DNA of 64,000 nucleotides from IMG/VR virus record IMGVR_UViG_3300029566_000004; one strand, given 5' to 3'. Under the pieces are notes generated by a model that saw only the letters and a list, made by a program, of their open reading frames with translations, was not told where the DNA came from and ran no database searches. The DNA is from a virus. This document shows positions 643 through 20,684 of this stretch, one piece after another; within the stretch, counting starts at the first letter, position 1, and the number at the start of each line of letters is the position of its first letter. Made by a program: the position numbers and the translations under genes.

Positions 643-664
643 TTTTTACCTCTCTTTTCTGCGT

Positions 665-1219: not shown

Positions 1220-1946
1220 AGATATTTCCTTTCACACGGTCATAAAACGGTATATGCTCACAAGTGTCTAAATTTAATAGTATCGCTCCACCAGACCAAA
1301 AAGAACCATTATCGATATCGATTTTATGGTCATCACCATATATAAGCAGAGTAGGCTCATGCGGCACATCCATATGTAACTCATCGACTACAAAAGGAAT
1401 TGGAGTATGACCATGGACGCATACTTCATCGGGTCGCTCACCGTTATCTTCTGGCACAATCACCTTATCACGAAAATGATTTCTGTCCCAAATTAAATCT
1501 TCACGGATAGGCAAATCTTTACGATATGGAGTATATCCCGCATGCGATAAATGCCAAATTGTGTTATTTTTTTCACTAAAATAATCCATATGTATAGGCA
1601 GTGTGCGCAAACGATCCAACCATACTTTGCGCTCTTCTGGGGTCTCTTTTAACCAGCCCCTATATGTATCATAGCCGTCATTCACTATTACTAATTCAAG
1701 AGATTCATTGAAAGGATAGCCAGCAAGACACTCTTCCATGGCATTTATAAGCATATCTTCATGATTGCCCATCAGATAGATAAACTGCGGATTAGTGTAT
1801 ACAGCTTTGATTAATTCCCAGTTCTTATAACCACGATCGCCGCAATCGCCTAAACAAATTACTTTATCTTCTGGTTTAATATAATCGAGAATTTGCTCAT
1901 AAATATCATACATACCGTGTAGATCTGAACACACATACATCGACAT
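1209..1946 (-). CDS. lambda-phosphatase/ApaH-like metallophosphoesterase
   Basis: 245-aa ORF; motifs SDLHG, GDCGDRG, GNHE, HGHT; RBS and promoter upstream. Confidence 0.8.
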   Translation of the reverse strand: MSMYVCSDLHGMYDIYEQILDYIKPEDKVICLGDCGDRGYKNWELIKAVYTNPQFIYLMGNHEDMLINAMEECLAGYPFNESLELVIVNDGYDTYRGWLKETPEERKVWLDRLRTLPIHMDYFSEKNNTIWHLSHAGYTPYRKDLPIREDLIWDRNHFRDKVIVPEDNGERPDEVCVHGHTPIPFVVDELHMDVPHEPTLLIYGDDHKIDIDNGSFWSGGAILLNLDTCEHIPFYDRVKGNIYGI

Positions 1947-1977
1947 GTTAAATTTCTCCTTTTATTTTTCTATATAT

Positions 1978-2006
1978 ATTATAACAAATTTTTTTATAAA
2001 AATCAA
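1978..2006 (-). promoter_or_regulatory. class-1 promoter TTGATT-N17-TATAAT
   Basis: Minus strand: TTGATT at 2006-2001, 17-nt spacer, TATAAT at 1983-1978; member of a motif repeated about 18 times. Confidence 0.7.
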
Positions 2007-2028
2007 AGGCGGCTGTTATGCCGCCTTT
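2005..2028 (-). terminator. intrinsic terminator hairpin
   Basis: AAAGGCGGC-TGTTAT-GCCGCCTTT followed by a T run in the minus sense, directly after the stop at 2032. Confidence 0.6.
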
Positions 2029-2031
2029 TTC

Positions 2032-2205
2032 TCAATCCTTTTTCTTATTATCTAGCAGAAGTGAAATGTTTAAGCCGCAGCATTTATATTCTGAATTATA
2101 TAGCATACATTTCTCTTCAAAACATTCTTCGACCTTTTCGTTACCAGTAAAGGGATCTGTACGAGAACGCAATGGACAAAGTTTTATTTCTACAAGTCTA
2201 CCCAT
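2032..2205 (-). CDS. small Cys-rich protein
   Basis: ORF track 2032-2250 trimmed to the ATG at 2205, which has a GAGG RBS; the longer form overlaps the upstream gene. Confidence 0.45.
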   Translation of the reverse strand: MGRLVEIKLCPLRSRTDPFTGNEKVEECFEEKCMLYNSEYKCCGLNISLLLDNKKKD

Positions 2206-2212
2206 ATATACC

Positions 2213-3643
2213 TCACATTTCTGATGCGATATCTGCATCGGCAACATCAATTGCCTCTTCAGTTATAATACCAGATAAACACTTAAATGTGAAATTCTTG
2301 TGTTTATAGGCAGTAAATGAAGGACGATTTACAATACGGACCACTACACCTTCGCGCACATGGGTTTTACCTATTGGGTCTGGACCGTCGCAGTAAGTTT
2401 CAGCAGCTTCCATTACCCATTCTCCGGGAGTTTTAGTAACATAATCAATAATTCCTTCACTATTTAGATATAGAATATTGCGGTCATTACTATCTGGAAT
2501 GCGGAGCTGCTCAAACACAGGAACAGTTTTACAACCCATTTGCTCACAACGATAACGCATATAGTCAGGAGTATATTCTACGACATTGCCATCCTCATTA
2601 GTCATAGTCATACGATATACATAGAAATCAGACTGAGACACAGGCTCTGGGATGCTAAATACACTGATTTCATCACGATAGAATTTTTTGCGCTGACCAG
2701 TTGGCTCACAGCCATATGAGAATACAGTAGTAGGACCATACTGACGCTCAAATTCTTTATCGTTTAACTTTTTATTACTTACTGATCCCATAATAGGCGC
2801 ACCAGAAGTAGTAAAACCAACAACTTCGTAGAATACTTCTTCACCCTTATGAAGTTTGCCTTCGAAGAACTTTGCGTGTGGCTCACGGAATTCATTAGAG
2901 CCATAGAAACCGCCATCGAAATTGTCAAGTACAGTACGACGAGTACCAGTTACATAACCCCAATCATAAATTGGCTTGCCGGGACGACGGAATAGTTTGT
3001 CCCAAAAAGTGCGCTTCATACCCTTAAACACTGGCAGATAACCGGTGCGCTGAGAGGTGCCATGCAATTTGAGTGTAATCTCAATCTCGTCACCAGGCTT
3101 AAAAGCGTTAAGATTATACGCAAGTTGTTCAGTATCGGCGTGCTCGTTAAATAAAGGCGCAATAGGTATATTCTTAGGCTTATTCTTACGAGTGCGGTTT
3201 GGGCTATTAAATTCATTATGAGCCTTTACCTTAGGAATATATTTATCACAAATCCCGTGGCCATTAAGCTCATGGATAACAGCGCCTTCAGTTAAGAGAG
3301 ACATATCTACACCAGTATATGCTACTGAGTCAAGAGCCATAAAGATACCATCAGAAGGTTCTCCGCGCAAACGAATAGTCTTGATGTTGCGCTTATCAGG
3401 CTCAAGATATCCACCAACATTTTTACCAGTTTCATCCTTGCGACGTACAAGATTATTCTGTGCGCAAAACTCTTCGCTTAACTGAAGCCCAGATGGGAAA
3501 TAAATACCCATATCACCAAGTTTTACATCCAGACCAACGCAAGTTTCACAGTCAAAGAACTTAGCGATTTGTAACTTATTGGCGTTCATATGTGGACGCA
3601 ACTCTTTTACTTTCACTACATAACCACAGTGAGTAATACTCAT
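2213..3643 (-). CDS. RNA ligase (Rnl2/DraRnl-like nucleotidyltransferase)
   Basis: Motif I KLHGTS resembles T4 Rnl2 KIHGTN; later EGVVVRI and YKHKNF motifs; start trimmed to ATG 3643 with RBS AAAGGAG. Confidence 0.7.
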   Translation of the reverse strand: MSITHCGYVVKVKELRPHMNANKLQIAKFFDCETCVGLDVKLGDMGIYFPSGLQLSEEFCAQNNLVRRKDETGKNVGGYLEPDKRNIKTIRLRGEPSDGIFMALDSVAYTGVDMSLLTEGAVIHELNGHGICDKYIPKVKAHNEFNSPNRTRKNKPKNIPIAPLFNEHADTEQLAYNLNAFKPGDEIEITLKLHGTSQRTGYLPVFKGMKRTFWDKLFRRPGKPIYDWGYVTGTRRTVLDNFDGGFYGSNEFREPHAKFFEGKLHKGEEVFYEVVGFTTSGAPIMGSVSNKKLNDKEFERQYGPTTVFSYGCEPTGQRKKFYRDEISVFSIPEPVSQSDFYVYRMTMTNEDGNVVEYTPDYMRYRCEQMGCKTVPVFEQLRIPDSNDRNILYLNSEGIIDYVTKTPGEWVMEAAETYCDGPDPIGKTHVREGVVVRIVNRPSFTAYKHKNFTFKCLSGIITEEAIDVADADIASEM

Positions 3644-4515
3644 TTTATATCTCCTTTCTGAACAACAGTCCAATTTAAATTTTGATAAGTCAATTTATTC
3701 ATATCTGACCAAATAATTTTTTTTGCAAGTGCTTTGTTGTCACGCTTATACTTAGGCATTGTTTTACGAATATGATTACACAGCCAATCACAAGCCTCTG
3801 TAAAAGTATTAAAACTATGTTTAAGTGCTTTAGTATCAGCATCATAAGCATATATGCATTCAGTATTATTGATAATTGCTTTGCGTGCTTTAGGATCAAG
3901 GCCCAAACGTGTAACTGCGGGCTTTGTTCCTTTCGCTACGAGTGCAGATTTATTTATTTCTGTTTTAGGCTCATAGTCCGGGAAAGGATGACCTTTTACC
4001 GTACCTCCTTGGTTCACCTCATCAAAAACAATTTTGAGAAATTCGGCATCTTCAAGAGCATTATGCGTCTGAACGAATTCCTCTTTTTTATAATAATTTA
4101 CAACTTTAATAAGAGCAATTTCTTTAATTAATCCAAAATGATTTTTAACAGTAGGAGCATAATTCACAAGGTTAGCCGCAATCAAAGAAAGTGACATTTG
4201 TGCGGTTATGCTAGTAGCTTTTTTAATTGCTTTACGCACAAATGTTAAATCTGTATTGCCATAACAGAAAAAGCGGCAAGGTGTGCCATCATTATGTTCT
4301 AATACCCAATAGAAAAAATGAGTAAATACATCATCTAAACTGGGCGCCGCTTTATTCATTCCATCAGTAATACCAGTTAAATTAGTAATAAAAGAAGTAA
4401 TTTTCTTATCGGTATAAACCATACTGGAAAATTTTGCATCTGTCTCACTAACGCAACCAATTGAAATAATTTCATTGGAAAATTGTGTTGCTTCAAAGTC
4501 AATAAAATAATTCAT
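3640..4515 (-). CDS. DnaQ-like DEDDh 3'-5' exonuclease
   Basis: N-terminal FIDFEAT (Exo I) and HNALEDAEF (Exo III, DEDDh) motifs. Confidence 0.7.
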   Translation of the reverse strand: MNYFIDFEATQFSNEIISIGCVSETDAKFSSMVYTDKKITSFITNLTGITDGMNKAAPSLDDVFTHFFYWVLEHNDGTPCRFFCYGNTDLTFVRKAIKKATSITAQMSLSLIAANLVNYAPTVKNHFGLIKEIALIKVVNYYKKEEFVQTHNALEDAEFLKIVFDEVNQGGTVKGHPFPDYEPKTEINKSALVAKGTKPAVTRLGLDPKARKAIINNTECIYAYDADTKALKHSFNTFTEACDWLCNHIRKTMPKYKRDNKALAKKIIWSDMNKLTYQNLNWTVVQKGDIK

Positions 4516-4516
4516 T

Positions 4517-5359
4517 TTATACCTCTAAGAAACTTTTAAGTTTATTACTTCTTATAGGATTACGCAGTTTAGTCAATGCTCGCTCTTCAATCCGACGAAT
4601 CCATTCTCGACTATAACCAAGTATTGTACCCACTTCTTCAAGCGATCTTTGAGAATGCCCATCTATGCCAAAACGCAATTTAATTACTTCACGCTCTTTT
4701 TCAGGAAGGGTATCTAAAACGGTTGAAACCATGGTCTTTAATTCAATAGAATAAATAGCATCAATAGGATCAACAGAATTTTCATCTGCAATTAAATCTC
4801 CAATGGTTGTTTCATCTTCATCAGTAAGAATAGTATTAGTTGAAATAGGTTCTATAAAAAACGAAGTAATTTCTTCTACTTCTTTTGAAGTCAATCCCAT
4901 TGCTTTTGCAATTTGATGCTTGGTTGGCTCATGACCAAGAGCTTGACGCAATGCTTCTGTGGTTTTACGAATTTTATTATAAGTCTCTTGAACATTAGCG
5001 GGAATGCGTGCAGTGCGATTCTGATTAACAATTTCACGTCTAATCGCTTGTTTAATCCAATAAGTAGCATAAGTTGAAAATTTATTCGTAGAAGTCAAAT
5101 CAAATTTTTCAATTGCTGGAATAAGTCCTATACTACCGATAGAAATAAGATCATCATTATCAAGCCCAGAGCATGTATAACGTCCAGCAATAGATTTAAC
5201 AAGACGCATATTATGCATCATCAATTCATTACGTGCTTCAATGTCGCCAGTTTGAGCGCGCTTAAGTAATTCGCGTTCCTCTTCAAATGTTAACAAGTCA
5301 TAACTGTTCAGTTTAGCACGATAAGCATGTGAACTATTGATGTCATTAATTGTACTCAT
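4517..5359 (-). CDS. sigma-70 family RNA polymerase sigma factor
   Basis: Region 2 (FSTYATYWIKQAIRREI), region 3, and a region 4 HTH (LEEVGTILGYSREWIRRIEERALTKLR). Confidence 0.9.
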   Translation of the reverse strand: MSTINDINSSHAYRAKLNSYDLLTFEEERELLKRAQTGDIEARNELMMHNMRLVKSIAGRYTCSGLDNDDLISIGSIGLIPAIEKFDLTSTNKFSTYATYWIKQAIRREIVNQNRTARIPANVQETYNKIRKTTEALRQALGHEPTKHQIAKAMGLTSKEVEEITSFFIEPISTNTILTDEDETTIGDLIADENSVDPIDAIYSIELKTMVSTVLDTLPEKEREVIKLRFGIDGHSQRSLEEVGTILGYSREWIRRIEERALTKLRNPIRSNKLKSFLEV

Positions 5360-6486: not shown

Positions 6487-6666
6487 ATGATTACATTAAT
6501 GTCAACTAATGGTCAGGTTCAATATGACCATGACGAATGGGTTGTTGACAAAGAAGAAGACTTAAAATTATTGCCGAGGAAAAGCGGTATGGGAAGTGTC
6601 GCTATTGTCATATCTACCGGAAAAGTGTATATGAAGGATAGCTCCGGCGAATGGAAGGTAATCTAA
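6487..6666 (+). CDS. small late-module protein
   Basis: GGAGG RBS 7 nt upstream of ATG 6487; first gene of the plus-strand block. Confidence 0.5.
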   Translation: MITLMSTNGQVQYDHDEWVVDKEEDLKLLPRKSGMGSVAIVISTGKVYMKDSSGEWKVI

Positions 6667-6667
6667 T

Positions 6668-6916
6668 ATGGATTTAATAACATATGCTTTATTAAAGCGA
6701 TAGATAGCTGAAAGCGGAGTTGATATTGAAACTATCATTCCCCATATAGGTGAAAATGGGAATTGGTACATCGGTGATAAAGACACAGGCGTTTCTGCGT
6801 TGCCCCCAGACGTAACTAACGTAGACATAGCTGACATCCAATAGGAAAAAGATGTTACTTTATATATTTTTGGTGGGTCTGCCTCCCAAGTTTTACCAAA
6901 GGAGGAAAATGAATAA
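6668..6916 (+). CDS. late-module protein (2 in-frame TAG)
   Basis: ATG 6668. The frame stays open to the TAA at 6914 only if TAG 6701 and TAG 6842 are sense codons. Confidence 0.55.
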
Positions 6917-7440
6917 TGTCCAAAGTATTAAAAGCGGTCGTTTAGCTGCGACGTGATAATGAATTTAATTTTGAACCTATTGCGAATTCATTCGTTCCCG
7001 CCAATGGCGAAGTAGTTCTAATAGATACACGTCGAGATGGTTTGCGTGCAAAAGTAGGAGATGGTAAAACTCCCTTGGCCAATCTTATTTGGACTGATGC
7101 ACGTTATCGCGATACCGTTGTGACGGGGTATTATGATGAATCTGAAGATGTTTTTTATGAAACAGATGCCAAAGAAGTAACTTTATCTGCCTATACCAAT
7201 CGTCTTTATATTGACAGATGGCGCAATAAAGTTTATTATTTTAATGGATTAACTTACGTATTAGTGGATGGGACTTGTCCCCCCGCATCCGCTACAATAC
7301 CTGGCATAGTTAAATTATATTCTACTACTGGCCAGAACACAGATGGCACAATGACTCAGAAAGCAATTACTGATGCATTAGACACAAAGTCTAAAGCTTC
7401 TGTAGATTTGCAAGATGAGCTTTTAGTTTTTTCAATTTAA
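6916..7440 (+). CDS. tail fibre protein, Mtd_N-like N-terminal domain (1 in-frame TAG)
   Basis: ATG overlaps the previous TAA. Motif VV[TAG]LRRDN..F.P....PANGEVVLIDT....KVGDGKT; same frame as track ORF 7042-7440. Confidence 0.7.
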
Positions 7441-7455
7441 GGAGGAAAAATTTAT

Positions 7456-8751
7456 ATGACATATACTTATGCAAATGCTCCCGTTCTTTCTAAAATTAAA
7501 ATCGGTGATAATTATTATTATATGAAAGATGCCGATGTACGGGCAATACTTGATACGTTTAATAATGCGATCGTAACTGGTACTATTGCCGCAAACGCAA
7601 GCGATGGTAATACTACAGATTTAGTTACTTTAGGTGTTGTTAAAGATTATGTTAACGCACAAGTTGGTACTATTAATAAGTTTGACGTCGAAGTTGCAAA
7701 TCCTGATAAAATTTTAACTACTCCTACCGCTGATGATATGTATATTCTTTATTTAGTTCCATCAGAGAATGCTGCTGCTGGTAGTTATGTTGAATATATT
7801 GTATTACGTTCCGGTACTGAAGGCAATTATACTTATGCTTGGGAGCAGATTGGCAATACAACTATTGACTTAACAGGTTATCTCTCTACTGATGCAACTG
7901 TTGCTGGCGTTAAATTCACTAATGGTAATGTTTCAGCCACAGCCTTAAAAACTGCATTAGACCTTGATAGCCTTGGCGCTTTTGCAAAAGCGGATACTGG
8001 TACTGCTACTGTTGTAAATGGTGTTGAGGATCATTCGTATCAACCTGCTGGTAATGTATCAGTAGTTCCTGGTTCTACTACTGCAACTGTTACATCTACT
8101 GGTACATATACTCCTGCTGGTAATATAACGGGTAGTGTTGTAGCTAGTGGTAATGTTTCAGCTGCTAAGAATAATGAAAGTGGCGCATTCCAGCTTAGTG
8201 GCTCTGTCGCTGCTCCAACAATTAGTGTTGTTCTTTCAAACGATAATTTTGTTAAGACTGCTGATGCTGGTTCATTACCTTCTTTCACAGAGGGTGCTTT
8301 TACAGCTGCAACATTAACTTACTCTAATAGTAATTTTGCTACTAATGGTTCTATTGCTTCAATTGGTAGTGGTGAAGATGCTGAAACCTTAATCTTCACT
8401 GCGGCAAGCACCGGTTCTGCAAGTAATATTACCGCATTTAATGGTGGTTCTAAGGCTGCTGACACTTTTAGCGCAGGCGCGCTTCCCACTTTCACAACAG
8501 GCAGTGCTGCGATTGGTGTTACTAGTGCTACCGCAACCGCTCCATCCTTTACCGGAGATAAATTTGACTTTACGTTTATTGGCACAGCTGCTACTGTTTC
8601 TGCCAACTTTGAAGGCACAGCAGCTACTATTAACGTAAGTGGTAATTATGACAAGACTACGATTGAAAGTGCGTCCTTTACTGGTACCACTGCAACTCTG
8701 TCTCATAATGTCACTACTGGTACAGTTACTGTTACTCCAGCTACAAAATAA
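7456..8751 (+). CDS. tail fibre/structural protein with Thr/Gly/Ala/Ser-rich repeats
   Basis: 431-aa ORF, AGGAGG RBS, low-complexity C-terminal two thirds, terminator downstream. Confidence 0.7.
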   Translation: MTYTYANAPVLSKIKIGDNYYYMKDADVRAILDTFNNAIVTGTIAANASDGNTTDLVTLGVVKDYVNAQVGTINKFDVEVANPDKILTTPTADDMYILYLVPSENAAAGSYVEYIVLRSGTEGNYTYAWEQIGNTTIDLTGYLSTDATVAGVKFTNGNVSATALKTALDLDSLGAFAKADTGTATVVNGVEDHSYQPAGNVSVVPGSTTATVTSTGTYTPAGNITGSVVASGNVSAAKNNESGAFQLSGSVAAPTISVVLSNDNFVKTADAGSLPSFTEGAFTAATLTYSNSNFATNGSIASIGSGEDAETLIFTAASTGSASNITAFNGGSKAADTFSAGALPTFTTGSAAIGVTSATATAPSFTGDKFDFTFIGTAATVSANFEGTAATINVSGNYDKTTIESASFTGTTATLSHNVTTGTVTVTPATK

Positions 8752-8770
8752 CTAATAATAAGGATAAATT

Positions 8771-8802
8771 AAGTAGGGGTTGAACTTCCCCTACTTAATT
8801 TT
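8771..8802 (+). terminator. intrinsic terminator
   Basis: AAGTAGGGG-TTGAACTT-CCCCTACTT followed by AATTTT. Confidence 0.6.
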
Positions 8803-8816
8803 AAAAGGAGATAAAT

Positions 8817-9158
8817 ATGGCAGATACTTTACGCATTAAAAAAATAAAATTAAACGATGGATCTGTCTATGCGATCTTCGATGAAGGTTCATTACGTTTA
8901 AATGACAATAATGTTTTAATTACGGGTAATAACATAGTTGACAATATGATTATTAAGGGGTCTTTACAAATTACTGAAATTGATGATATTCCTGTTAATA
9001 AATCGCTCGAATATGTTTTAACCTGGGATGCCTCAATTGGGGCATTTTATAAATGTACCTTAGCAGATTTATTTAGTAATGATATTTATGAATTATCTGT
9101 GGATAATAATAACATTCTTACATTAAATAATTTATATGCTAATACAACTATTCAATAA
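8817..9158 (+). CDS. late-module protein
   Basis: 113-aa ORF with RBS AAGGAG. Confidence 0.6.
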   Translation: MADTLRIKKIKLNDGSVYAIFDEGSLRLNDNNVLITGNNIVDNMIIKGSLQITEIDDIPVNKSLEYVLTWDASIGAFYKCTLADLFSNDIYELSVDNNNILTLNNLYANTTIQ

Positions 9159-9184
9159 ATTTACAAAGAAAAGAGGACAAATTT

Positions 9185-10393
9185 ATGGCATATGATGCTA
9201 ATGATTTGGTTATAAAATAGATTCAAGCATCAAATGGTTTGCATGAATTAGATGCAAAATATTTTGATGGTCATAAGTGGTCAGATGTAACAGAATTGGT
9301 AGAAGCGGGTTTTGAAGCTACCATTATGACAACTCTTCCCACGATTACTAGTGAAAATTATAATACATATCGTAATACCTTAGCTTTAAAGGCAGACGAA
9401 AATGCTGAAGCTGGTACGTATTTGGAATATATTGTAGTTAAAGAGGGTAGTACTCAAACTCCCACTTATACTTGGGAACAAATTGGTAGTACAAAAACTA
9501 ATTTTACAATTCCAACAGAACCGTCAATTACTTTAACTGTTAGCACAGCTTCTACTACAGTCCATACTACTAATAATGGTAGTCAAACCGCTACTGGAAA
9601 TGCAAGTATTGTATATGATAAAGCAACCAGTATTGGCTCTGCGGGTGGAGCTACTGCTACTGTTGAAATTACAGTTGACAAGTTAGCGCCTACTATCACT
9701 GAGAGTACTGGCGGAGCCAATATAAAGAATACGAGTTAGCTGGCAGCATCAACAGTTGATACTACTGAAGATGGCAGTCATACCCATTCTGTTACCACTA
9801 CTGCGCATAGTCATACAGTTTATTTAAGTTCCAGTTCTAAAACTGTTGTTACTAATGTAACTAAAACTGGTGCAGCTGGTGCTCATACACATAGCATATC
9901 AGTTAGTAGTTCTAGCACTCCTGTTATAATTTCCGCAAGCGTTAATAATAATATCCTAAGTTTTGGCACAGCTAACGTCATTTCTTCTATTAATGCAGCT
10001 AGCGCAACTGGAGAAGCCGGTGGTCATACTCATAGTATTACTCCTATTACTGCAACCATCAATCATATTACAGGTGCCACTTTAGCTGCTAGTGCTCCTA
10101 ATGGAACTGCAACCTCTGCCGGCACTCATAGTCATAATGTTACGATTGCAGCTCATAGTCATACTTATGTTGAGCTTAAAGCGCATACTCACGCTATTGC
10201 TACTATCAGTGCAACATATAGCGGCGATGCTACAATTAGTGAACATAGTCATACTATTAATTATACTACTACAACTGTTACTGGTACTGCTAGTGTTGCG
10301 GTTGCAAGTCATACTCATAGTGTTGTTATACCTGCGCATACTCATACCGTAACCGTACCTGCTCATAATCATAGTACAGCTGCTGGTTTATAA
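9185..10393 (+). CDS. receptor-binding tail fibre with at least 10 HxH motifs (2 in-frame TAG)
   Basis: ATG 9185; TAG at 9218 and 9737. The frame stays open to TAA 10391. Repeats are SHTHS, AHSHT, GHTHS, THSHN, AHTHA, EHSHT, AHNHS. Confidence 0.7.
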
Positions 10394-10461
10394 AAAATTA
10401 TTTAATGAAGGGAGAGGATTTAATCCTCTCTCTTTAATTAATTTAAAGGAGATAAAGGTGT

Positions 10462-11616
10462 ATGAATTATAAGATTTGTATTTATGCAATTTGTAAAAAT
10501 GAAAAAGAATGGATTAATCGGTGGATAGATAATATGTCTGAAGCTGATTATATCGTTGTTTTAGATACAGGTTCAACCGATGGATCTTATGAAATGTTAA
10601 AAGAAGATTCTCGTATAACTCGTGTTGAATAGAAAATCATTAATCCTTGGCGTTTTGATGTAGCACGCAATGAATCAATGAAATTGGTTCCAGAAGATAC
10701 CGATATTTTTGTTTGTACTGACTTTGATGAAGTGTTTGAATAGGGATGGGCGCAAGTATTACGTGATAATTGGCAACCTGAAGATACAAGATGCTATTAT
10801 ACATATGCATGGTCACATAATGCTTTAGGTGAGCCTCAAGATGTATTTAAATATGATAAAATTCATGCAAAAAATTATCATTGGGTATTTCCAGTGCATG
10901 AAGTATTAGTTCCAAACGATTTAAGTAAACCAGAAGTTGCTTTAGACGCAGGCGAACATATTTATTTACATCATTTATAGGATATAAGTAAACCGCGCGC
11001 CTATTATTTTGATTTGCTTAAAATTGGCGTAGAAGAAAATCCTGCTAATTCGCATTGTTAGATGCTATTAGCGCGGGAATATTTACTTAAGCAAGAATAT
11101 GATAATGCGCTTGAAGCTTATGAAAAATGTTTACAATACGCTGATATTTATGAGCCTAACAAAAAAATGGTTTTATGTGAGACATATGGAAGATTAGGTG
11201 ATTTATATTATTGGCATAAGCACAACTTGAGCGAATCTGTTAAATATTTTAATAAATGGATTGAAGTTGACCGCACGTATCGTGAACCTTATTTTTGTTT
11301 GGCTGATATATATAATAATCAGGAACTTTATCCCTTAGCAATTGGATTAGTTACTACTGGATTAATCGTTGGTCAGCGTCATTATGATTGGGTTGAGCGC
11401 AAGGATAATTGGATTGCTAAAGGCGAAGAACTTTTATGCTATTCTTATTTAGGTTTAAAAGATTATTCTAATGCAATTGTACATGGTAAATTAGCATTAG
11501 CACATGACCCAAACAATGTAACGCTTTTACAAAAATATACAATGGCTCTTGAGGGTTCGATTGCAGGAATGACGCAATCAAATAATAATAGTAACGAATC
11601 ATTGCAAAAACTTTGA
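10462..11616 (+). CDS. family-2 glycosyltransferase fused to a TPR-like region (4 in-frame TAG)
   Basis: N-terminus ICIYAICKNE...VVLDTGSTDGS...CTDFDE (GT2 DxD); TAG at 10630, 10741, 10978, 11059; same frame as track ORF 11062-11616. Confidence 0.75.
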
Positions 11617-11667
11617 AAATGATGGATGCGGGCGAGGATCGTTAAAATAAAAAAGGAGGATGATTGA

Positions 11668-13662
11668 ATGAATGAAATTTCGAAAATAATTATTCCAGGA
11701 AATACTGTTCCTTATGACTTACGTGATGATTATGCGCGCGAAAGAATTAATAATAGCCATTTATTTATTGTTAGTCCGTTAACGACGAGTATAATAAATA
11801 TATATACTTTATTAGGACGGGTGGTAGAACCTTATGAAGGATTAATGCTACATATTTTATGCACAAATAATAATAACGACTCGATTACCCCCACATCTAT
11901 TCGATTAGCAGCGAACGAATTACCAATTGAAATTGAGTATTCTAATTTTATTCGCCGCCGCCCAATAAATGGTGGGATTTACAGTTTTGTTTTACATTAT
12001 ATACCCGAAGAAGAGACGACTCCTGCGCATTGGAATTTTTATCCGATAGATGACACATTAAAATCAAAAGGTGTTGAAATTATTGAGTATACTACCGAAG
12101 CCGATGCAGCTCATGCACAAGTAAAAAAAGCATTGAGTCAAAATATATTACCAGTTGTGCACTATATTGATACAAATGCTGACAATTATGAATATTGGCT
12201 ACCATTATATGAATATGCTACTGATAAAACTAGTTTTATTTTTTCAGCATCTACGGCATATACTTCCAGTGAAGATATTTCGTTATCTTATATTAGAATA
12301 AATTTAGACTCTACGACCTGGGCTATTGATAACTGTGGAACTAATACGGTTAATATTCCCACAATGGCTTAGGCAAAAGGATTATTTTATGGGACTTGCT
12401 AGACCAGCAATGCCACAGCTGCAAAGACTGTTACAGGAGTTGCTGATTGGCCAGAGGCTTTTTTTGCCGGTTAGACAATTTTAATCAAATTTCAACATGG
12501 TAATAATGTTAAAGAAAATCTTACTTTAAGTATAAATGGATCAACTCCAGCTCCAATAGTAGCTTATGATGGTGTTAGCCCTGCGACGATATGGGCAGCT
12601 GGCTCAATTTTATTATTTATTTATAGTGGTACGGATTGGCGTTTAGTCGATGGTCATAATAATGTTAAAATTTTAGGTGATTTAGGTATGGGGTATGGCT
12701 CTTGTGCCAATGCATTAGAAGCAACTGCTAAAAATGCATCTATTCAAGATTATGTATTAACAACTGGAAGTCTTGTAGCAATTAGATTTACATATAGCGT
12801 ACCTGCTGGTTCTACTTTAAATATTTCTGGCACTGGCGCAAAAGCAATTTATTATAAAGGTGCGCCTATTCAATCTAATATAATTAAAAATAATGATACT
12901 GCGCTATTTGTTTATACTGGTTCCGTATATGAATTATTGACTACTACTTCAAAAAATTTATTGCCATTAACAACAAGTACTGATTATATTGTATGTACTA
13001 CATCTGCTAATAATAGTATTAAAATAGCAACATTAAGTGGATTTACATTACCAACTGCAGCAAACCCCTCTGGACATAGATTTGCGGTTAATTTTAAGAA
13101 TTCAGTGCCCGCTAACGCACAATTAAATATTTCTAGCACTGGAGCTAGACACATTATTTGTAATAATGCAAATATTAGCGCAAATACTATTCAAGCTAAT
13201 GATGTTGTCATATTAGAATCTTCTTGGAATGCTTCGTTGGCTACAGCTCAATATATTGTGCGTGCGATTGATCGCAATAATATACGACATGTTTATGAGA
13301 ATTCAATACGTATACGCAATACTACTATAAACAATGCTAACGGACATATCTACGAGTCACCGACAGATATTAAAGGGTACTGGAGTGCCACAACATCAAC
13401 AGGTAGTACGACAGCTACCAATCCTACAATATGTTTATATAATAATACAAATGGTTTCACAAATATTGCACCTGACATGGTACATTAGATAATAGGATCG
13501 GCATATATAGAAATTGGCTCGCGAAAACATATAACTCCTATTATTTTAGATCAAATTGATGTATCACGCACTGCTTTTTTACAGGCTCATTTGGCGAATT
13601 TTTCAGCGCCCGCTAATAGCACTCCTACTTACTATTTGCAAATAATATGTCCTAAAAAATGA
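11668..13662 (+). CDS. large tail fibre/receptor-binding protein (4 in-frame TAG)
   Basis: Track ORFs 11668-12372 and 12688-13488 share one frame. It is joined through TAG 12370, 12400, 12472 and 13486 and ends at TGA 13660. Repeated YG(T/S)C...TGAK.I modules. Confidence 0.65.
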
Positions 13663-13673
13663 GGTGATTAATT

Positions 13674-14555
13674 ATGGCAAAATATTATCCTGAAAATTTT
13701 ATTAAATGGGCTTTAACACATGTTAAACGCTCCACTATTCCTTCAGATGCAAAATTACCATTACCTATTGCAAAATGTGGTACTGAACCTTGGAATTATT
13801 TATTTGGCAGTGTTCGTGTAATGACAACTCAAGCGACTATTGACTATTATTTTAACAATCATTATAAAAATAAAATGACACGTATTGAATATAATGCAAT
13901 TACTGATGCTTGGAGTCGTACAGGTTACGCGACTGATTGTCAAGGTCTCTTGGATGCCTGGATGACTCATGAGATGAACAACAAGACGGATATCAATGCC
14001 CAGATGAATTATGCAAACTGGTGCACAGATAAGGGATCAATTGCAAGCATAAATCGTCCATATGTCATTGGAGAAGCTGTTTTCATGTATTCAGCTAGAT
14101 CTAAAAAAATGACACATATCGGATGGATTTGTGGATTTCGCGCAAATGGTGAACCTCTTGTCGTTGAGGCACGGGGCATTGCGTATGGCGTAGTTGTAAC
14201 TGAATTGTCAAAACGCAATTGGACTCATCGCGGTTTAATGACTGCAAAATTTGATTATACTAAACATCAGGAGGAACCTAAACCTATGTCTACAATTAAA
14301 TTTGAAAAAACAAATCCAATGAAAATTGGAGCACCTTATTTAGCCATGCAAAAAGCCTTAAACGCAGCTGGTTATACAGACGCTACTGGTAAAGTATTAG
14401 TAGAAGATGGAAAATGGGGTACTAAATCTTAGCAAGCATTTGAGAAATTGATTAATGCACATATTACAATTCCTGAACCAGAAAAAGTAAATCGTATTAC
14501 TACATTTTTTTCTCCAGATGGCAAATATAAGTTCTCTGTTATTTTAGAGAAATAA
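13674..14555 (+). CDS. endolysin: NlpC/P60-like peptidase plus PG-binding-like C-terminus (1 in-frame TAG)
   Basis: Cys motif TDCQGLL and His in MTHIGWI. After TAG 14430 the frame continues (QAFEKLINAH...) to TAA 14553. Confidence 0.65.
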
Positions 14556-14593
14556 ATTTAATAATAAAAATAAGAAAGGAAAGGAAGAATAAT

Positions 14594-15367
14594 ATGTCTT
14601 CAAGTCCAATTATTTTAACTACTACAAATTTTAGCACTTTATTTAGTGAAATTTATAGTGTAGTACATCCCGGCACAGGAGAAAATAATAATAATATTGG
14701 CAAAGTTTTATAGGTGGGTAATGATGGTAAAGTTACTTTTACTAATGATATTGTTACTAGTACTGGTTTAAACGCTTTAGAAGCGCGTGTTACGAATAAT
14801 GAAACGGCTTTAGCCAATAAAGTTACTTTAGATGATATAACAACCGCACTTAATACAGCTCGTCCAGTAACCAATAGTGCAAGTGCAAAATTGCAAACTG
14901 CAATTCTTAATCAAGCCGATGTAGCCATTGCTGCATAGTTAAATACTGGCGCTATTGGCGCAGCTATAATTTCAGCAACAACAAATATGGTAACTACAAG
15001 TGATGTTACAACAGCTATTAGTAATGCTAAAAAAGAACTATCTGCTGTTAAGGCTAATAGCGATTTAGCAAATGTATTAGGTTTTGCTAAAGGTAATAAT
15101 ACTAATCTTATAGCTCCTGACGGTACAGCATTAAATAAAACTAGTGTAACTACTATTAAAGAATATATTGATGTTAATGATGCTGAATTATCTACAAAAA
15201 TAGGTAGCGCACCAAATAGTACTGTTGCATTAAATACATTAAAAGCTAATTTAGGTATTACAACTAGTGGTGATATTAATATTTGGCAAGCTATTGAAGC
15301 AATTTCCAATAAAATCGGTAATACAGTTACTGTTAGACCTTCCGATTTAGGCATATCTACTACATAA
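14594..15367 (+). CDS. late-module protein, Ala/Thr/Asn-rich (2 in-frame TAG)
   Basis: ATG 14594 with RBS; TAG 14711 and 14936 join track ORFs 14714-14938 and 14987-15367 in one frame. Confidence 0.6.
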
Positions 15368-15434: not shown

Positions 15435-16964
15435 TTATTTAATTCGTGTATACATTTCTCCGTCGAGAACATCAAGCATAAGCTCAAACGCAGTTTTACC
15501 TTTCATAATCTGCTCAAATAGTACAGGACTGAAGCCGCTAACGAAGGTGATACCATCTTTTACAGTCATAGGAATATTATTCTGACGAGCTTGCACATTC
15601 CAAAAGATGAGATTAGGCATCTTTAGACCCCATGCACGCCATTTATCAGCAATATGTTCCATGAGAGCACCACTATTATTATCACTCCATAGACGCGCAG
15701 CATCAAATTCCATATCTGAGATGATGATTATATTCTGAGGAATATCTTCCTTCTTCACATCAGGACGAAGTGCTATTTTAAGAAGAAGATCAAAAGTAGC
15801 TTCAATATCAGTGTTTTCACAAAGATTAGTACGGTAAATACGTGCAACCTTATCACAGAAGTCAACACCTTCAGTAGCTATCCACTGAGGACGACTAGAG
15901 AAGCTAATGTAATGTCCTGCAAAAGGTCCTTTGTTGTGTTCGGCGCAATAAAGACCAAGAGAAATAGCAACATTAATAGGTGCAGATGCCTCACTGCCCC
16001 TCATAGAACCAGAAGTATCAACAACTGCAATGCCATTAAAGGTTGCGCCTTTAAAGTAATCAGTCAAATTCTCCCAATATTTATTAACTGCCAGACGATT
16101 TATATCATCAAGAGCAGGCTCAAAGTCACTACCAAAGTCACTACACCAACCTAAACTTTTCCGCATAACATTTGTGGCGGCTGCAACGCATTCATAAGGA
16201 TGAAGCGCCTTAGCATTAACCTTAGTTTTAGTATCCTTCATGAAGTCTTCATAAGTGGTTTTGCCGATTTTCTGACGTTCAATATCGTGACGAGCAAAAG
16301 CATTGCGATAAATCATACCGGCGCGAGAAGGAATTTTGTCAAATTCAATTTCATTCCAACGTTTTGCAGACATCAGTCTTTCAAGAACACGAATACGTTC
16401 ACGAAGGCTAGAAAGTGCTTTACGATACTCACGAGAAGTAAGATTAAACTTTTGGCGAGTAAGGGTTGCAAGCTGACGGCTCTCATGGCTAGAAGTATTT
16501 TCAGATTTAAGCCATTTAGCAAGCAAAGAGGGGGTCTTGCTCTTAAGATCAAGAACAAGCTGTTGCTTCATCAGGTAGAACATCTTATCCTCAACAGGAG
16601 TTCCTACAAGAGCATAAAGATCGTCCCAGCGACCATAAAAAGGAATGTTCTCAAGATTACGAATTACATCTTCAGGATGATTTTTTGCAAGCCAGTTAAG
16701 GACAACGCGGAAGTAACGACGCTCACCCTGGCCACCGCGTACGGAGCGCAAATAAAAAAGGCACTTAAGCGCACGAAGCGCATCTTCTTCATAAGCCTTC
16801 TTAAAGAGCAGAATGCAATCTGCGTTGGAGCGGGTACGGTACGCGCCACCGAGTGCAAACATATCAAGTAGACCGCTCATAGTAGACTTGTGAGTCAGAG
16901 CACCATTCTCGGTAACAGCATAGTTGTTCGCGTTATTCATTACGTTCATAAAAGTATTAGCCAT
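15435..16964 (-). CDS. helical-domain plus vWA protein (DUF2828-like, Ro60/TROVE-like architecture)
   Basis: 509 aa; N-terminus TENGALTHKST..LLDMFA.GGA.R; C-terminal MIDAS VVDTSGSM. The family name comes from memory of similar phage proteins. Confidence 0.6.
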   Translation of the reverse strand: MANTFMNVMNNANNYAVTENGALTHKSTMSGLLDMFALGGAYRTRSNADCILLFKKAYEEDALRALKCLFYLRSVRGGQGERRYFRVVLNWLAKNHPEDVIRNLENIPFYGRWDDLYALVGTPVEDKMFYLMKQQLVLDLKSKTPSLLAKWLKSENTSSHESRQLATLTRQKFNLTSREYRKALSSLRERIRVLERLMSAKRWNEIEFDKIPSRAGMIYRNAFARHDIERQKIGKTTYEDFMKDTKTKVNAKALHPYECVAAATNVMRKSLGWCSDFGSDFEPALDDINRLAVNKYWENLTDYFKGATFNGIAVVDTSGSMRGSEASAPINVAISLGLYCAEHNKGPFAGHYISFSSRPQWIATEGVDFCDKVARIYRTNLCENTDIEATFDLLLKIALRPDVKKEDIPQNIIIISDMEFDAARLWSDNNSGALMEHIADKWRAWGLKMPNLIFWNVQARQNNIPMTVKDGITFVSGFSPVLFEQIMKGKTAFELMLDVLDGEMYTRIK

Positions 16965-17042: not shown

Positions 17043-17071
17043 ATTATATCATAATTTTTTTACTTTTTCAA
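17043..17071 (-). promoter_or_regulatory. class-1 promoter TTGAAA-N17-TATAAT
   Basis: Minus strand: TTGAAA 17071-17066, TATAAT 17048-17043; overlaps the stop of the upstream gene. Confidence 0.6.
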
Positions 17072-18276
17072 AAAAGTAATTTATGCAACTTTATTGAATT
17101 TCGAGTATAGCCATCAGATACATAAACTCTCTCAGCCGCTACTTCTTTATATTCATCTATGTGTTCATATTCATTGAGATGCGTTAAAACTAGGCTCGTA
17201 GTAACTGGATAGTCAGACTTTTTGCTCTCAGAGGCTATTCTAGTCGCAAATTCTTTATAGTCTAAAATACCATAACGTAGCGTATCCTGGAACATATTCG
17301 GAACATTTGTTCTATCCCACATGAAGAAGTTAATATCTTTTTTCTCGCACTCTGTATCAAAACGACCGGCACCATGACGAGTCATATATGTTCTTGAAAC
17401 GTAGTAAGTATTAATATAGCCGGTAAAATAACATTCTTTGAGAATTTCATTGATGTTATATAAACCAGTATGGCTAGGTGTAAGATGCGGATAATATTCC
17501 ATATTATCCTGGTCTAACAGCAAGCCCTGACCATTCTCAAAAATGACATCATCATATGAGTGTAAAAAGTCTGGACTGTCTACCAAAGCGCACTTTTTCA
17601 TCATGAATTCAAAATCTGAAATGTAATTCTGAATTGCAATTTCAGATTCTAGCGCTTTCTCTAATTCTATCGGCATTTTATGAATTTTTGTCTGGTCAAT
17701 ACGCTTTTCAGTATAATACTTCTTTAGCGATTTAAGATAGTCATATTTACCCAGATAAGACAAAGCCGCAAATTCACCGATAGAAATCCCATAGGGACTA
17801 ATGACTTCCTGCTGAAAAACGAATTCTTTATCTCTATAGCGGCATATGGTTTCATAAATACCTAAACCGCACGAGCCATGTTTTGCTACGCCGCGTTCAA
17901 TTTCTCGAGCCTGATTAATAATCATATCATAAAAGGTAGTAAATTTACACCTTTTATCAATATAAATCTTCGGGCGATTGAATAGTTTAGGCATTAACTT
18001 TTCATACTCTTCTTTGAATATCATTGGGTTACAAATGAAAGATTTGGCAATATAAGTAGATGCGCCCACAAAAGTACCCGCACCAATATGGCGAAAGATA
18101 TGTTCTCTGCCTTCTGGAGTAGTCACAGTATGTGCACGCTGAGGTCCACCATTGTGCAATACAACTATAGCGTTGTCACTTTTGGAAGCTAACCAATCGG
18201 TGACTAGTCCTTTACCTTCATCACCAAAGTTTGCTCCAATAACTGCGGATACCTTAAATTTATAAACTTCAAACAT
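17068..18276 (-). CDS. divergent adenylosuccinate synthetase family protein (PurA/PurZ-like)
   Basis: P-loop GANFGDEGKG, GGPQRAHT, GSCGLGI, FENGQGLLLD, RHGAGRF align with PurA motifs; the C-terminal TTGRRRR-type motif is not recognisable. Confidence 0.7.
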   Translation of the reverse strand: MFEVYKFKVSAVIGANFGDEGKGLVTDWLASKSDNAIVVLHNGGPQRAHTVTTPEGREHIFRHIGAGTFVGASTYIAKSFICNPMIFKEEYEKLMPKLFNRPKIYIDKRCKFTTFYDMIINQAREIERGVAKHGSCGLGIYETICRYRDKEFVFQQEVISPYGISIGEFAALSYLGKYDYLKSLKKYYTEKRIDQTKIHKMPIELEKALESEIAIQNYISDFEFMMKKCALVDSPDFLHSYDDVIFENGQGLLLDQDNMEYYPHLTPSHTGLYNINEILKECYFTGYINTYYVSRTYMTRHGAGRFDTECEKKDINFFMWDRTNVPNMFQDTLRYGILDYKEFATRIASESKKSDYPVTTSLVLTHLNEYEHIDEYKEVAAERVYVSDGYTRNSIKLHKLLF

Positions 18277-18296
18277 ACCTTTCACCTTTCTGTCAA

Positions 18297-19217: not shown

Positions 19218-20219
19218 TCATTCCTCCTTTGGATAGATTTCATTTTCTTTGGGTTCAAGTTTTATAAATTTGCGTTCACCATATGCTGTCTTTAAAGCTT
19301 CATCCCATTTACTCCACTCTTCGATCGGGTCTTCACTGGAGCCACTCATATAGAAATCAGTCATAGCCTTCGGGCAGTCAGTATCTAAAGTGCGAAGCAT
19401 TAATTTGACACTTTCTATATCTGTTAAATAGTTTGAAACTTTATCGGCTTTTACTTTTGGAGGCATAACCGCATATATATCAGAAGTAGTACCAATCATG
19501 GGCTCGCCTTCTTTTGCAGCAAACCACCAGCCACCGTAGATGCTAATTGCATGATACTTACAACTTATAAAACAGTTATCAATATCAATGCCATTAACTG
19601 TATAGCCTTCGTGATTAATGAAAGTAATATTCTGCATTAATCGACTCGTTATCCAAGCCAAATGGCGACCTGGTACTTTATTATGCCAATAATTCTCAAT
19701 AAGTGCACGCAACGGATACATATCTTCATTTTTCTGGATTGAAATAATATATTTATCACCAGACGTATAGTAATGAATATCTTGTGGAATTATTACATCA
19801 AAAATTTCTTTTTTCATTTTCGCGTCGGAACAATTCCAAGAAGCAAAAATATGCCGGAAATTCTCATAAAATCTTTTGTGAGCTGCATCGAATATGTAAA
19901 TAAGTCTTGTTTTACTTACATAATATTCGCATATGTCAAGAATACGATGATATTTATATCTGATTCTTAAGGTAGAGCCATTGTCTAACTTAAATGACAT
20001 TATTCCTTTCTCATGCCAAGAGCCATTTGCTAAAGCAGCTAAAGCTTCATCTTTTAACTCAGTTAAACGACGAAAGGCTACTTCGGCATTAGCATCTTTG
20101 TTGATATCAGGATGGACTTTTTTCGCATAAGCGCGATATTGCGCTTCAATCTCATTTTTGTCATGCGAAAATAAGTCACCATATGTGCAGGTCAAAATTT
20201 TATTAAGAAGTTCCGGCAT
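19218..20219 (-). CDS. J-domain (DnaJ-like) protein
   Basis: YRAYAKKVHPDINKD with the HPD motif. Start trimmed to ATG 20219 (RBS AAGGAG) because the longer ORF runs into tRNA-Ile. Confidence 0.7.
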   Translation of the reverse strand: MPELLNKILTCTYGDLFSHDKNEIEAQYRAYAKKVHPDINKDANAEVAFRRLTELKDEALAALANGSWHEKGIMSFKLDNGSTLRIRYKYHRILDICEYYVSKTRLIYIFDAAHKRFYENFRHIFASWNCSDAKMKKEIFDVIIPQDIHYYTSGDKYIISIQKNEDMYPLRALIENYWHNKVPGRHLAWITSRLMQNITFINHEGYTVNGIDIDNCFISCKYHAISIYGGWWFAAKEGEPMIGTTSDIYAVMPPKVKADKVSNYLTDIESVKLMLRTLDTDCPKAMTDFYMSGSSEDPIEEWSKWDEALKTAYGERKFIKLEPKENEIYPKEE

Positions 20220-20237
20220 ATAATTCTCCTTATATAA

Positions 20238-20314
20238 TGGTGCTGGTGGGTGGACTCGAACCACCGACATTCACCTTATCAGAGTGACGCTCTAACCAAC
20301 TGAACTACACCAGC
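20238..20314 (-). tRNA. tRNA-Ile(GAU)
   Basis: Hand-folded cloverleaf, loop CUGAUAA, T-loop GGUUCGAGUCC, encoded CCA. Confidence 0.85.
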
Positions 20315-20318
20315 GAAT

Positions 20319-20395
20319 TGGCACTCCGGAGAGGACTTGAACCCCCAACACCTTGATCCGTAGTCAAGAGCTCTTTCCAATTGAGCTACCGGAGT
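20319..20395 (-). tRNA. tRNA-Arg(ACG)
   Basis: Cloverleaf, loop CUACGGA, encoded CCA. Confidence 0.85.
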
Positions 20396-20533
20396 AAAAA
20401 AAATAAGGTGAAATAGCAGGCACAGGAAAAGTGGAAGTGAAAACCGTGTCAATAAACTATTTCACCTTAAAAATTACAAGACTCATTAAAAATAATATCC
20501 ATATTTCTATAAAATTGCTGTTTGAGTCTTAAT

Positions 20534-20607
20534 TGGAGCACGATATGAGATTTGAACTCACAACTTCGGTTTGGAAGACCAATATGTTACCCTTACACTA
20601 ATCGTGC
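20534..20607 (-). tRNA. tRNA-Gly(UCC)
   Basis: Cloverleaf, loop CUUCCAA, discriminator U, CCA. Confidence 0.85.
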
Positions 20608-20610
20608 ATA

Positions 20611-20684
20611 TGGTGCGGGGCTGCGGATTTGAACCGCTTTTTCAGCTTTTTAAAGCTGAGGGTATACCTTTAGCCTAACCCCGC
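20611..20684 (-). tRNA. tRNA-like gene with a non-canonical anticodon loop (UUUAAAAA)
   Basis: Good acceptor stem, T-arm and CCA. The anticodon stem CAGC/GCUG encloses 8 nt (6 nt if the U:A pair closes); a 7-nt loop is not possible. Confidence 0.5.

Follow-up and report, generated by a model that had tools for sequence, protein, structure and literature searches.

A gut phage that probably reads TAG as glutamine in part of its genes, and its suppressor tRNA with a long extra arm

Background

Can a codon be a stop in one gene of a phage and an amino acid in another, and how would the second meaning be brought about? The question is raised by the IMG/VR virus record IMGVR_UViG_3300029566_000004, of which a stretch of 64,000 nucleotides was analysed (here called the window; all positions refer to it). 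Fourteen of its open reading frames (ORFs) contain the codon TAG in frame, and a tRNA with the matching anticodon CUA is encoded at 21770-21858. Taking all evidence together, we consider it highly probable that this gut phage uses genetic code 15 in part of its genes, that UAG is translated as glutamine (Gln) through the phage's own tRNA(CUA), and that TAA and TGA remain stops.

Genes that contain TAG in frame

When the ORFs were re-derived counting only TAA and TGA as stops, the 14 genes of the initial annotation were recovered with the same coordinates, TAG counts and ends. Together they contain 30 TAGs, and all 14 start with ATG and end in TAA or TGA. The plus-strand block at 6.4-15.4 kb begins with a gene for 82 amino acids (aa) at 6668-6916, whose two TAGs (6701 and 6842) are both CAA in the relatives L005 and L006, and a fibre-like gene (6916-7440, 174 aa) with one TAG at 6943. 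It continues with a fibre-like gene with HxH repeats (9185-10393, 402 aa, 2 TAGs), the product of which matches phrog_4311 at its C-terminus, a gene for a GT2 glycosyltransferase with TPR repeats (10462-11616, 384 aa, 4 TAGs), and a gene of 664 aa (11668-13662, 4 TAGs) that probably encodes a fibre or receptor-binding protein. An endolysin-like gene (13674-14555, 293 aa, one TAG at 14430; phrog_2649 endolysin, E = 8.7e-4) and a gene of 257 aa (14594-15367, 2 TAGs) complete the block.

A small plus-strand island carries a polytopic membrane protein gene (42934-43590), the two TAGs of which are conserved in close relatives and lie within a weak Form_Nir_trans match (residues 2-185), further a gene for a predicted tandem winged-helix DNA-binding protein that had been called Rep-like (43717-44346, 6 TAGs), and a small ORF of uncertain coding status with one TAG and no family match (44971-45225). 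On the minus strand, TAGs are found in an HNH endonuclease gene (20992-21468, codon 23), a DNA methyltransferase-like gene (22004-22531, codons 9 and 52; its Pfam Eco57I match is weak) and a GIY-YIG homing endonuclease gene (27600-28229, codon 13, between the GIY and YIG motifs), all three within the tRNA array, and at codon 250 of a 268-aa gene without assigned function (31731-32537). The claim that selfish-element genes depend on TAG thus applies to the HNH, methyltransferase and GIY-YIG genes; the PD-(D/E)XK gene at 25493-25912 has no TAG.

Out of frame, the late genes contain TAA and TGA at a density of 0.077 per codon. Since the frames stay open for 165-430 codons past the first TAG (P = 1e-6 to 1e-15 per gene), chance is excluded. 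The longest TAG-containing open frame at 6.4-15.4 kb has 664 codons; in 200 shuffles the corresponding value averaged 137 and never exceeded 237. Coding coverage of this region rises from 0.65 to 0.91 when TAG is counted as sense. However, treating TAA as sense also inflates coverage, by fusing adjacent ORFs, and we therefore relied on homology rather than on coding density.

Recognisable domains continue past the TAGs, as had been stated initially. The Pfam GT2 match covers residues 9-109 and spans TAG57 and TAG94; both the Pfam GIY-YIG match (residues 1-87) and phrog_5123 (residues 1-97) span TAG13; phrog_10822 matches residues 6-151 of the HNH protein across its TAG, in addition to Pfam HNH; and phrog_799 matches residues 12-160 of the methyltransferase-like protein across TAG52. 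The HNH gene could bypass TAG23 by starting at Met25, but the PHROG match, which already sets in at residue 6, makes this unlikely. TAG250 of 31731-32537 was considered as a true stop and ruled out: homologues run 17-29 aa beyond this position with a conserved tail, and the two closest have Q there. The peptidoglycan-binding tail ascribed to the endolysin is present as PF01471 in homologues, while the window protein itself gave no Pfam match at E<=0.01; a sequence search of the endolysin against the PDB gave no match. By these comparisons, the full-length homologous products of the plus-strand fibre-like, GT2 and endolysin genes need read-through of TAG, and so do those of the plus-strand island (membrane and winged-helix proteins), of the three mobile-type genes in the tRNA array and of one other gene.

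The TAGs are also retained in relatives. Four contigs from independent samples (L001-L004), which carry the 98% identical database match of the GT2-TPR protein, are 94-100% identical to and collinear with 0-21 kb of the window. As they keep 16/16 late-block TAGs, including all four of 11668-13662, these TAGs are not sequencing errors. Database gene calls on the same contigs fail to translate under table 11, so that other pipelines must already have applied code 15. Database endolysin entries of 252 aa, on the other hand, end exactly at the TAG position.

The residue at TAG

The initial annotation had proposed to tabulate the residues opposite the TAGs, and the tabulation gave Q in the invariant columns of the homologue alignments. 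Among 120 homologues of the GT2-TPR protein, two conserved TAG columns have Q in 91/120 and 85/120 sequences; among 120 homologues of the 43717-44346 protein, four TAG columns have Q in 118/118, 120/120, 120/120 and 111/120. Of 92 distant endolysin homologues, 55 have Q in the TAG column; the codon in L005 is CAG.

Some database proteins have themselves been translated with code 15, and the DNA codons of relatives were thus checked. In the invariant Q columns of the winged-helix gene, L016, L019 and L021 (97%, 60% and 65% protein identity) interchange TAG, CAA and CAG. Because the DNA of relatives carries CAA or CAG at TAG codons, the assignment is not circular. Relative to L005 and L006, which are approximately 80% identical, about 21 sites have changed, and at 10 of these TAG is matched by CAA or CAG. 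The TAG at 6943 had been placed at the Q of a fibre motif, and indeed it occupies the Q position of the N-terminal motif V-Q-L-R-R-D and is CAA in both relatives. In L005, TAG185 of 9185-10393 is CAG, two TAGs of the GT2-TPR gene are CAA, and so is TAG40 of 14594-15367 (by blastn); conversely, three CAA/CAG codons of 11668-13662 in the window are TAG in L005. The Q-dominated columns and the swaps in relatives' DNA bear out the assignment made initially and establish, as far as sequence comparison can, that the residue at TAG is Gln.

One further site was noted on the minus strand. Codon 85 of 88 in 40374-40640, three codons before the stop, is CAG in the window and TAG in L013, L014, L016 and L017; either the two codons are synonymous for Gln, or the relatives stop earlier.

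The suppressor tRNA

The tRNA(CUA) gene predicted at 21770-21858 (minus strand) is found by both ARAGORN and Rfam (58.5 bits). Its product is 89 nucleotides (nt) long with an encoded CCA, forms a cloverleaf in the minimum free energy fold and has a Gln-type acceptor end. The anticodon lies at 21824-21826, and an extra-arm hairpin, GCUU-CUG-AGGC, at 21805-21815. Sequence and fold give U1-A72, G2-C71, G3-C70, G73, G10 and U35, which we take to be the identity set of the E. coli glutaminyl-tRNA synthetase (GlnRS); U1-A72 is also a determinant for GatCAB. The remaining GlnRS identity element, G36, is absent, as the CUA anticodon puts A at position 36, and U-CUG-A is found in the extra arm instead. 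The tRNA can be aligned to the tRNA-Gln(UUG) that close relatives encode, apart from 15 nt inserted where the variable region begins, and this region has an abnormal 19 nt. It has a long arm as class II tRNAs do, but the acceptor pair U1-A72 (not G1-C72), G73 and the CUA anticodon do not agree with that class. The tRNA would receive its Gln from the charging system of the host. The same tRNA(CUA) is present on three IMG/VR contigs of 129-138 kb, on one of them with two substitutions, and the genome is thus likely to be about 130-138 kb in size.

The tRNA array at 20200-28700 (minus strand) does not contain a tRNA-Gln(UUG); the arrays of L009, L014 and L015 have one. At 20611-20684 (minus strand) there is a tRNA-like gene that is conserved in L003 and L009. 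Its anticodon loop, UUUAAAAA, is 8 nt long, and ARAGORN gives the anticodon as 'taaa'; a Leu UAA anticodon, an ochre-like reading or frameshifting are possible. Three more minus-strand sites (28315-28387, 26230-26290 and 22697-22765) are tRNA matches by Rfam alone; one has a 9-nt anticodon loop, and one has no pairing acceptor stem and is probably a tRNA pseudogene. Rfam at gathering thresholds gave only tRNAs in this region and no ribozymes or other RNA families near them.

An anticodon-like loop in the extra arm

IMG/VR was scanned with the pattern UGGGG...CUCUAAA...T-loop, and unrelated contigs yielded numerous tRNA(CUA) genes 88-98 nt in length; some of these contigs also have a canonical tRNA(CUA) of 73-75 nt. 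A second scan without the acceptor constraint gave at least 120 loci, as did a scan for opal suppressors (loci L024-L049, L054-L162 and L178-L275). All counts in this section are among the matches listed. The second scan contains 52 unique tRNA(CUA), 38 of which are long-armed, and 33 of these 38 have YUGA in the extra arm (30 CUG, 3 UUG). The positions 3 and 4 nt outwards from YUG pair in 33/33, with covariation between CG, GC, AT and TA, and the next outward pair forms in 23/33. The positions that adjoin the U-YUG-A core on either side, one 2 nt 5' of the triplet and the other right after the A, are mostly C.A or U.G. The loop accordingly has 7 nt, N-U-YUG-A-N, and U precedes the triplet in 26/33. 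This is the layout of the tRNA-Gln anticodon loop; the loop of the phages' real tRNA-Gln(UUG) is CU-UUG-AC.

Opal suppressors show the same arrangement with another triplet: 11 of 15 long-arm tRNA(UCA) carry U-CCA-A/U, which contains the Trp anticodon, on a covarying 4-bp stem. As controls, 122 Ser, Leu and Tyr tRNA arms were taken from the same loci as the suppressors. YUGA is present in 33/38 CUA, 1/15 UCA and 7/122 control arms (Fisher p=4e-22 against Ser/Leu/Tyr), and UCCA followed by A or U in 0/38, 11/15 and 0/122, respectively (p=3e-13). The triplet GAU, the usual bacterial Ile anticodon, is present in the arm of 6/7 long-arm tRNA-Ile(UAU) versus 21/122 controls; the six (89-95 nt; L084:1804, L094:5346, L102:902, L104:929, L115:3352 and L125:3669) include four that are near-identical. 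This hints that the same device may serve further anticodons that are foreign to the host. In the window itself, tRNA-Ile(UAU) (26884-26957) has a normal 74 nt.

Two kinds of known tRNA are similar in part. The E. coli amber suppressors supE (tRNA-Gln CUA) and su7 (tRNA-Trp CUA, charged by GlnRS) are point mutants of 75-76 nt with a variable loop of 4-5 nt. The phage tRNA shares with them the CUA anticodon, a weak 1-72 pair, G73 and Gln at UAG, but differs in the 15-nt insertion that forms the U-CUG-A hairpin. With class II tRNAs (Ser, Leu and bacterial Tyr), in which the long variable arm is an identity element and, in tRNA-Ser, is recognised by the synthetase, it shares an extra helix between the anticodon and T arms. 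Unlike them, it has a Gln-like acceptor end (U1-A72, G73) and an arm that is followed by 5-7 unpaired bases, and the arm loop of the suppressors is conserved as an anticodon loop, a feature of only 7 of the 122 class II arms.

We tentatively propose that these phage suppressors form an undescribed 'two-anticodon-arm' class, in which a hairpin in the variable region displays the anticodon loop of the inserted amino acid and thereby helps charging in the host, although we give this well short of an even chance. The true anticodon arm would read the stop codon, and the extra arm would provide the GlnRS or TrpRS of the host (or the GluRS/GatCAB route) with the anticodon signal that has been lost; in the window tRNA, the U-CUG-A loop would supply the G36-containing signal that a CUA anticodon lacks. 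Two points speak against this proposal: the arm of the window tRNA is the shortest of the class, with only 2-4 base pairs, so that its 7-nt loop is not assured, and binding of GlnRS to an arm at positions 44-48 presupposes a hypothetical geometry.

The alternative, to which we give a nearly even chance, is that the extra arm is not an aminoacylation signal but an evolutionary remnant of an anticodon arm that was once duplicated, a decoy that draws anticodon nucleases or modification enzymes, or an element for processing or stability. The very short arm in the window fits this as well, and in complexes of class I synthetases, as in the GlnRS-tRNAGln structure, the variable region faces away from the enzyme. 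The arm would also seem dispensable for suppression, since several phages carry a canonical tRNA(CUA) of 73-75 nt without it in addition. On the other hand, the stems covary around a loop of conserved sequence in many unrelated contigs, and the motif follows the reassigned amino acid (YUG with CUA, CCA with UCA), with near-zero cross-occurrence and near-zero frequency in Ser/Leu/Tyr arms; a mere leftover would decay. Full-text searches of the literature returned no description of anticodon-like extra arms in suppressor tRNAs, which is not proof that they are unpublished.

TAG as a stop codon and the timing of expression

TAG is distributed unevenly. Per 1000 codons, it occurs 5.5 times on the plus strand at 6.4-15.4 kb (16 TAG versus 47 CAA+CAG), 24 times in the plus-strand island at 42.9-45.2 kb, 7.2 times in genes within the tRNA array, and 0-0.5 times in the other minus-strand blocks. 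About 75 minus-strand genes are essentially free of sense TAG although they have 20-35 Gln codons per 1000. The 32 genes at 45.5-64 kb contain no sense TAG and are thus readable in the standard code, which agrees with the initial description of TAG-free early cassettes, with two qualifications. The gene at 57251-57766 (minus strand) ends in a TAG (57251-57253). In L010 this codon is TAA, with an indel after it. In the window, an intrinsic terminator, the hairpin GCCCCGATAAGGGGC with a T-run (57227-57241, minus strand), lies 7 nt past the stop. On this comparative evidence TAG genuinely terminates at least one early gene, and since this stop is TAA in L010 and adjoins a terminator, TAG has two meanings in the genome; its initial description as a sense codon is right for the 14 genes, not for this one. 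Secondly, in 56488-56811 TAG is codon 100 of 107, and as both this TAG and the TAA 8 codons later precede one and the same terminator, it is ambiguous whether it is sense or stop.

Seventeen perfect TTGACA-N17-TATAAT promoters (12/12 motif matches) precede small TAG-free genes on the minus strand between 47563 and 62932, and because of these sigma-70-type promoters the block at 47-63 kb is probably the early region. Many of the small genes in this array also have hairpin terminators at their 3' ends, which makes it an unusually regular array of early-gene cassettes. On the plus strand, the scan gave only two sites with at least 11/12 matches, one inside gene 6916-7440 and one at 59.5 kb within the minus-strand block; none was found upstream of any plus-strand module. 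Upstream of the plus-strand genes there is likewise no shared late-promoter motif beyond a Shine-Dalgarno-like AAGGAGA. A TAG-free gene at 4517-5359 (minus strand) encodes an RpoD-like sigma factor (NCBIfam RpoD, 277 bits; Pfam Sigma70 r2-r4 in the relative L001) and is a candidate driver of later transcription. The initial annotation had confined TAG to late, replication and selfish-element genes, and these classes are broadly right; that the TAG-rich plus-strand genes are late, and others replicative, we infer.

These observations would fit the following sequence of events. Right after infection, the small genes behind the perfect sigma-70 promoters would be translated in the standard code of the host, in which TAG is avoided or is a stop. 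Full-length products of the TAG-containing genes would arise only after enough suppressor tRNA has accumulated to compete with release factor 1 (RF1), and recoding would thus be a translational timer in addition to transcriptional control. A promoter-like TTGAAA-N17-TATAAT site (21987-22015, minus strand; 11/12 matches) lies about 130 nt upstream of tRNA(CUA). If it functions as a sigma-70-like promoter, synthesis of the tRNA may begin early, and the delay may reflect the time that it takes to build up against RF1.

Several points weigh against so simple a scheme. A tRNA(CUA) made early from such a promoter may weaken a strict late switch; three plus-strand late-block genes contain no TAG; and the gene of the putative replication initiator has one of the highest TAG contents, which would be a poor fit to 'late genes only'.

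A different view is that the whole system, host included, always reads TAG as sense, so that no temporal switch exists and the distribution reflects gene age or codon bias. The rarity of TAG stops (at most 2/85 genes) and the promoter-like site upstream of the tRNA, which suggests early expression, can be cited for it. Still, we regard it as unlikely in view of the true TAG stop in the early gene 57251-57766, with TAA in the relative and a terminator adjoining, and of the near absence of sense TAG from the Gln-containing minus-strand genes. In addition, code-15 phages are reported in standard-code hosts (Borges et al., 10.1101/2021.08.26.457843), and homologues of the endolysin are found in metagenome-assembled genomes of Ruminococcus and Clostridia, which hints at a Firmicutes host.

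Alternative decodings of TAG

Decoding of UAG as Ser, Tyr, Leu or Trp instead of Gln is less probable still. Part of the tRNA evidence could be read in this way: the variable region is class-II-like in its 19 nt, and without the insertion tRNA(CUA) is 76% identical to the window tRNA-Trp(CCA) as compared to 72% for a relative's tRNA-Gln. Moreover, three TAT (Tyr) codons of the window correspond to TAG in L005, which counts against Gln; they lie in the poorly conserved, divergent fibre gene 11668-13662, and we regard them as single-step mutational neighbours. However, S, Y, L and W are essentially absent from the TAG columns of the 120-sequence alignments, Q is invariant at four columns of the Rep-like protein, and the swaps at conserved sites are between TAG and CAA/CAG, not TCN, TAY or TGG. 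The 1-72 pair of tRNA(CUA) is U-A as in tRNA-Gln and not A-U as in the phage Trp tRNAs, G73 as the discriminator excludes Leu and Tyr identity by the E. coli identity rules, and the extra-arm loop shows CUG rather than a Ser-type arm.

That the TAGs are real stops, and the genes pseudogenes, split fragments or assembly errors without any recoding, can for practical purposes be dismissed: it would explain why code-11 gene callers give shortened proteins such as the 252-aa endolysin entries, but not up to 430 open codons after the first TAG, homology running across and past TAGs, TAGs kept in independent assemblies, TAG/CAR interchange at invariant Gln positions and a dedicated tRNA(CUA).

A winged-helix gene flanked by iteron-like repeats

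The gene 43717-44346 (209 aa) is the most TAG-biased of all, with 6 of its 7 Gln codons being TAG. An AlphaFold2 model of the product (predicted local distance difference test score 83.8) has two winged-helix units, and the protein matches phrog_3396 (E=8e-8) but no Pfam family. Foldseek against the PDB returned tandem winged-helix proteins only (Stn1, SelB and TFE; best E=0.009). Membership in a Rep family (Rep_3, RepA or pi) was looked for in Pfam, PHROG and Foldseek without a match, and the gene was thus dropped as a member of a known Rep family.

Upstream of the gene (43607-43697, plus strand) lie three iteron-like direct repeats with the sequence AAAAATGGTCAAAwwTTTCTAT, and downstream of it (44340-44415, plus strand) two more copies. 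Its orthologues are also TAG-rich and also located on a small plus-strand island, and the repeat, at 22-nt spacing, flanks them on both sides (L019:9818-9958 and 10628-10703; L021:9831-9943 and 10637-10760). The TGGTCAAAwwTTTCTAT repeat DNA is conserved even though the L019 and L021 proteins are just 60-65% identical. The locus thus combines a predicted tandem winged-helix protein with direct-repeat arrays beside its own gene, as is typical of iteron initiators (RepA, RepE, pi; Rep_3), which it also resembles in direct repeats of 17-26 nt at 22-nt spacing; it differs from them in that Pfam and PHROG give no Rep match and Foldseek no Rep structures.

The label 'Rep-like' is therefore supported by fold and conserved 22-bp iterons, not by a known family. 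From the repeats, the region is probably a replication origin, and on the structural model an iteron-binding origin protein is a reasonable reading of the gene product; a transcription or partition factor is a further candidate. The cumulative GC skew of the window turns near 42 kb.

Comparison with known recoded phages

TAG-to-Gln recoding with suppressor tRNAs has been described in many gut phage clades, with early genes in the standard code, recoded genes for structure and lysis, replication genes in which recoding varies, and an intron homing endonuclease that is preferentially recoded (Borges et al., 10.1101/2021.08.26.457843). TAG-dependent homing endonuclease and replication genes, presented as new in the initial annotation, were thus already known from this work. 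For crAss-like phages, code 15 has been confirmed by proteomics (Peters et al., PMC9523058).

The window resembles the code-15 gut phages (crAss-like, Lak, Garnet, Amethyst, Jade, Sapphire and Agate clades) in its in-frame TAG for Gln, in its phage-encoded tRNA(CUA) and in that other genes can be read in the standard code. Among candidate structural and lysis genes, TAG is found in the fibre-like and endolysin-like ones; the window does not extend to the genes for capsid, portal, terminase and tail. It differs from these phages in that the iteron-flanked winged-helix gene is the most TAG-biased and in its long-arm suppressor.

The human gut phage phAss-1 (proposed Phassvirus, about 136 kb) reads TAG as Gln in 41 ORFs and has several tRNA(CUA) genes and about 30 tRNAs without a synthetase of its own (Babkin et al. 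2023, PMC10607447). Neither megablast nor tblastn found any similarity of the window to a GenBank-derived phage collection. Kinship to phAss-1 was thus rejected, as this collection is expected to include OQ749652, BK046881 and BK025033, and we assign the window phage to a different lineage.

Other genes in the window

The gene at 17068-18285 (minus strand) is a divergent adenylosuccinate-synthetase-like gene that matches phrog_1211, annotated as PurZ-like. Identity as PurZ was rejected (NF038379 38.7 bits versus a cut-off of 300), and PurA models are also far below their cut-offs. Together with genes for an HD-domain protein (53937-54572), a nucleoside 2-deoxyribosyltransferase (52888-53466) and an NT5C-like nucleotidase (54730-55161), it could possibly belong to a modified-base pathway.

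A set of genes resembling RNA repair functions (91-5359 and 15435-16964, minus strand) adjoins the 25-gene tRNA array. It comprises two Metallophos phosphoesterases, an AAA_33/PNK-like kinase, an ATP-dependent RNA ligase, an RNase T-like exonuclease and a DUF2828/TROVE (Ro-like) protein, and may counter tRNA cleavage by the host. The DUF2828 gene (15435-16964) is intact in the window and split by a GIY-YIG gene in the relative L001.

Conclusions

The window provides a clean further example of code 15, in a phage lineage without GenBank relatives. Recoding itself is known biology in another lineage, and the part that looks new is the anticodon-bearing extra arm of the tRNA. For annotation, the practical consequence is that the standard code shortens these proteins, and the public protein collection already contains 252-aa endolysin stumps. 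Within one genome, TAG terminates an early gene and codes for Gln elsewhere, which bears on the idea that recoding times infection, as does the observation that the putative origin-binding protein is encoded by the most TAG-dependent gene. If the extra arm does act in charging, it would explain how suppressors are charged efficiently and specifically by the anticodon-reading enzymes of standard-code hosts, and it would offer those who engineer orthogonal or efficient suppressor tRNAs a design principle taken from nature.

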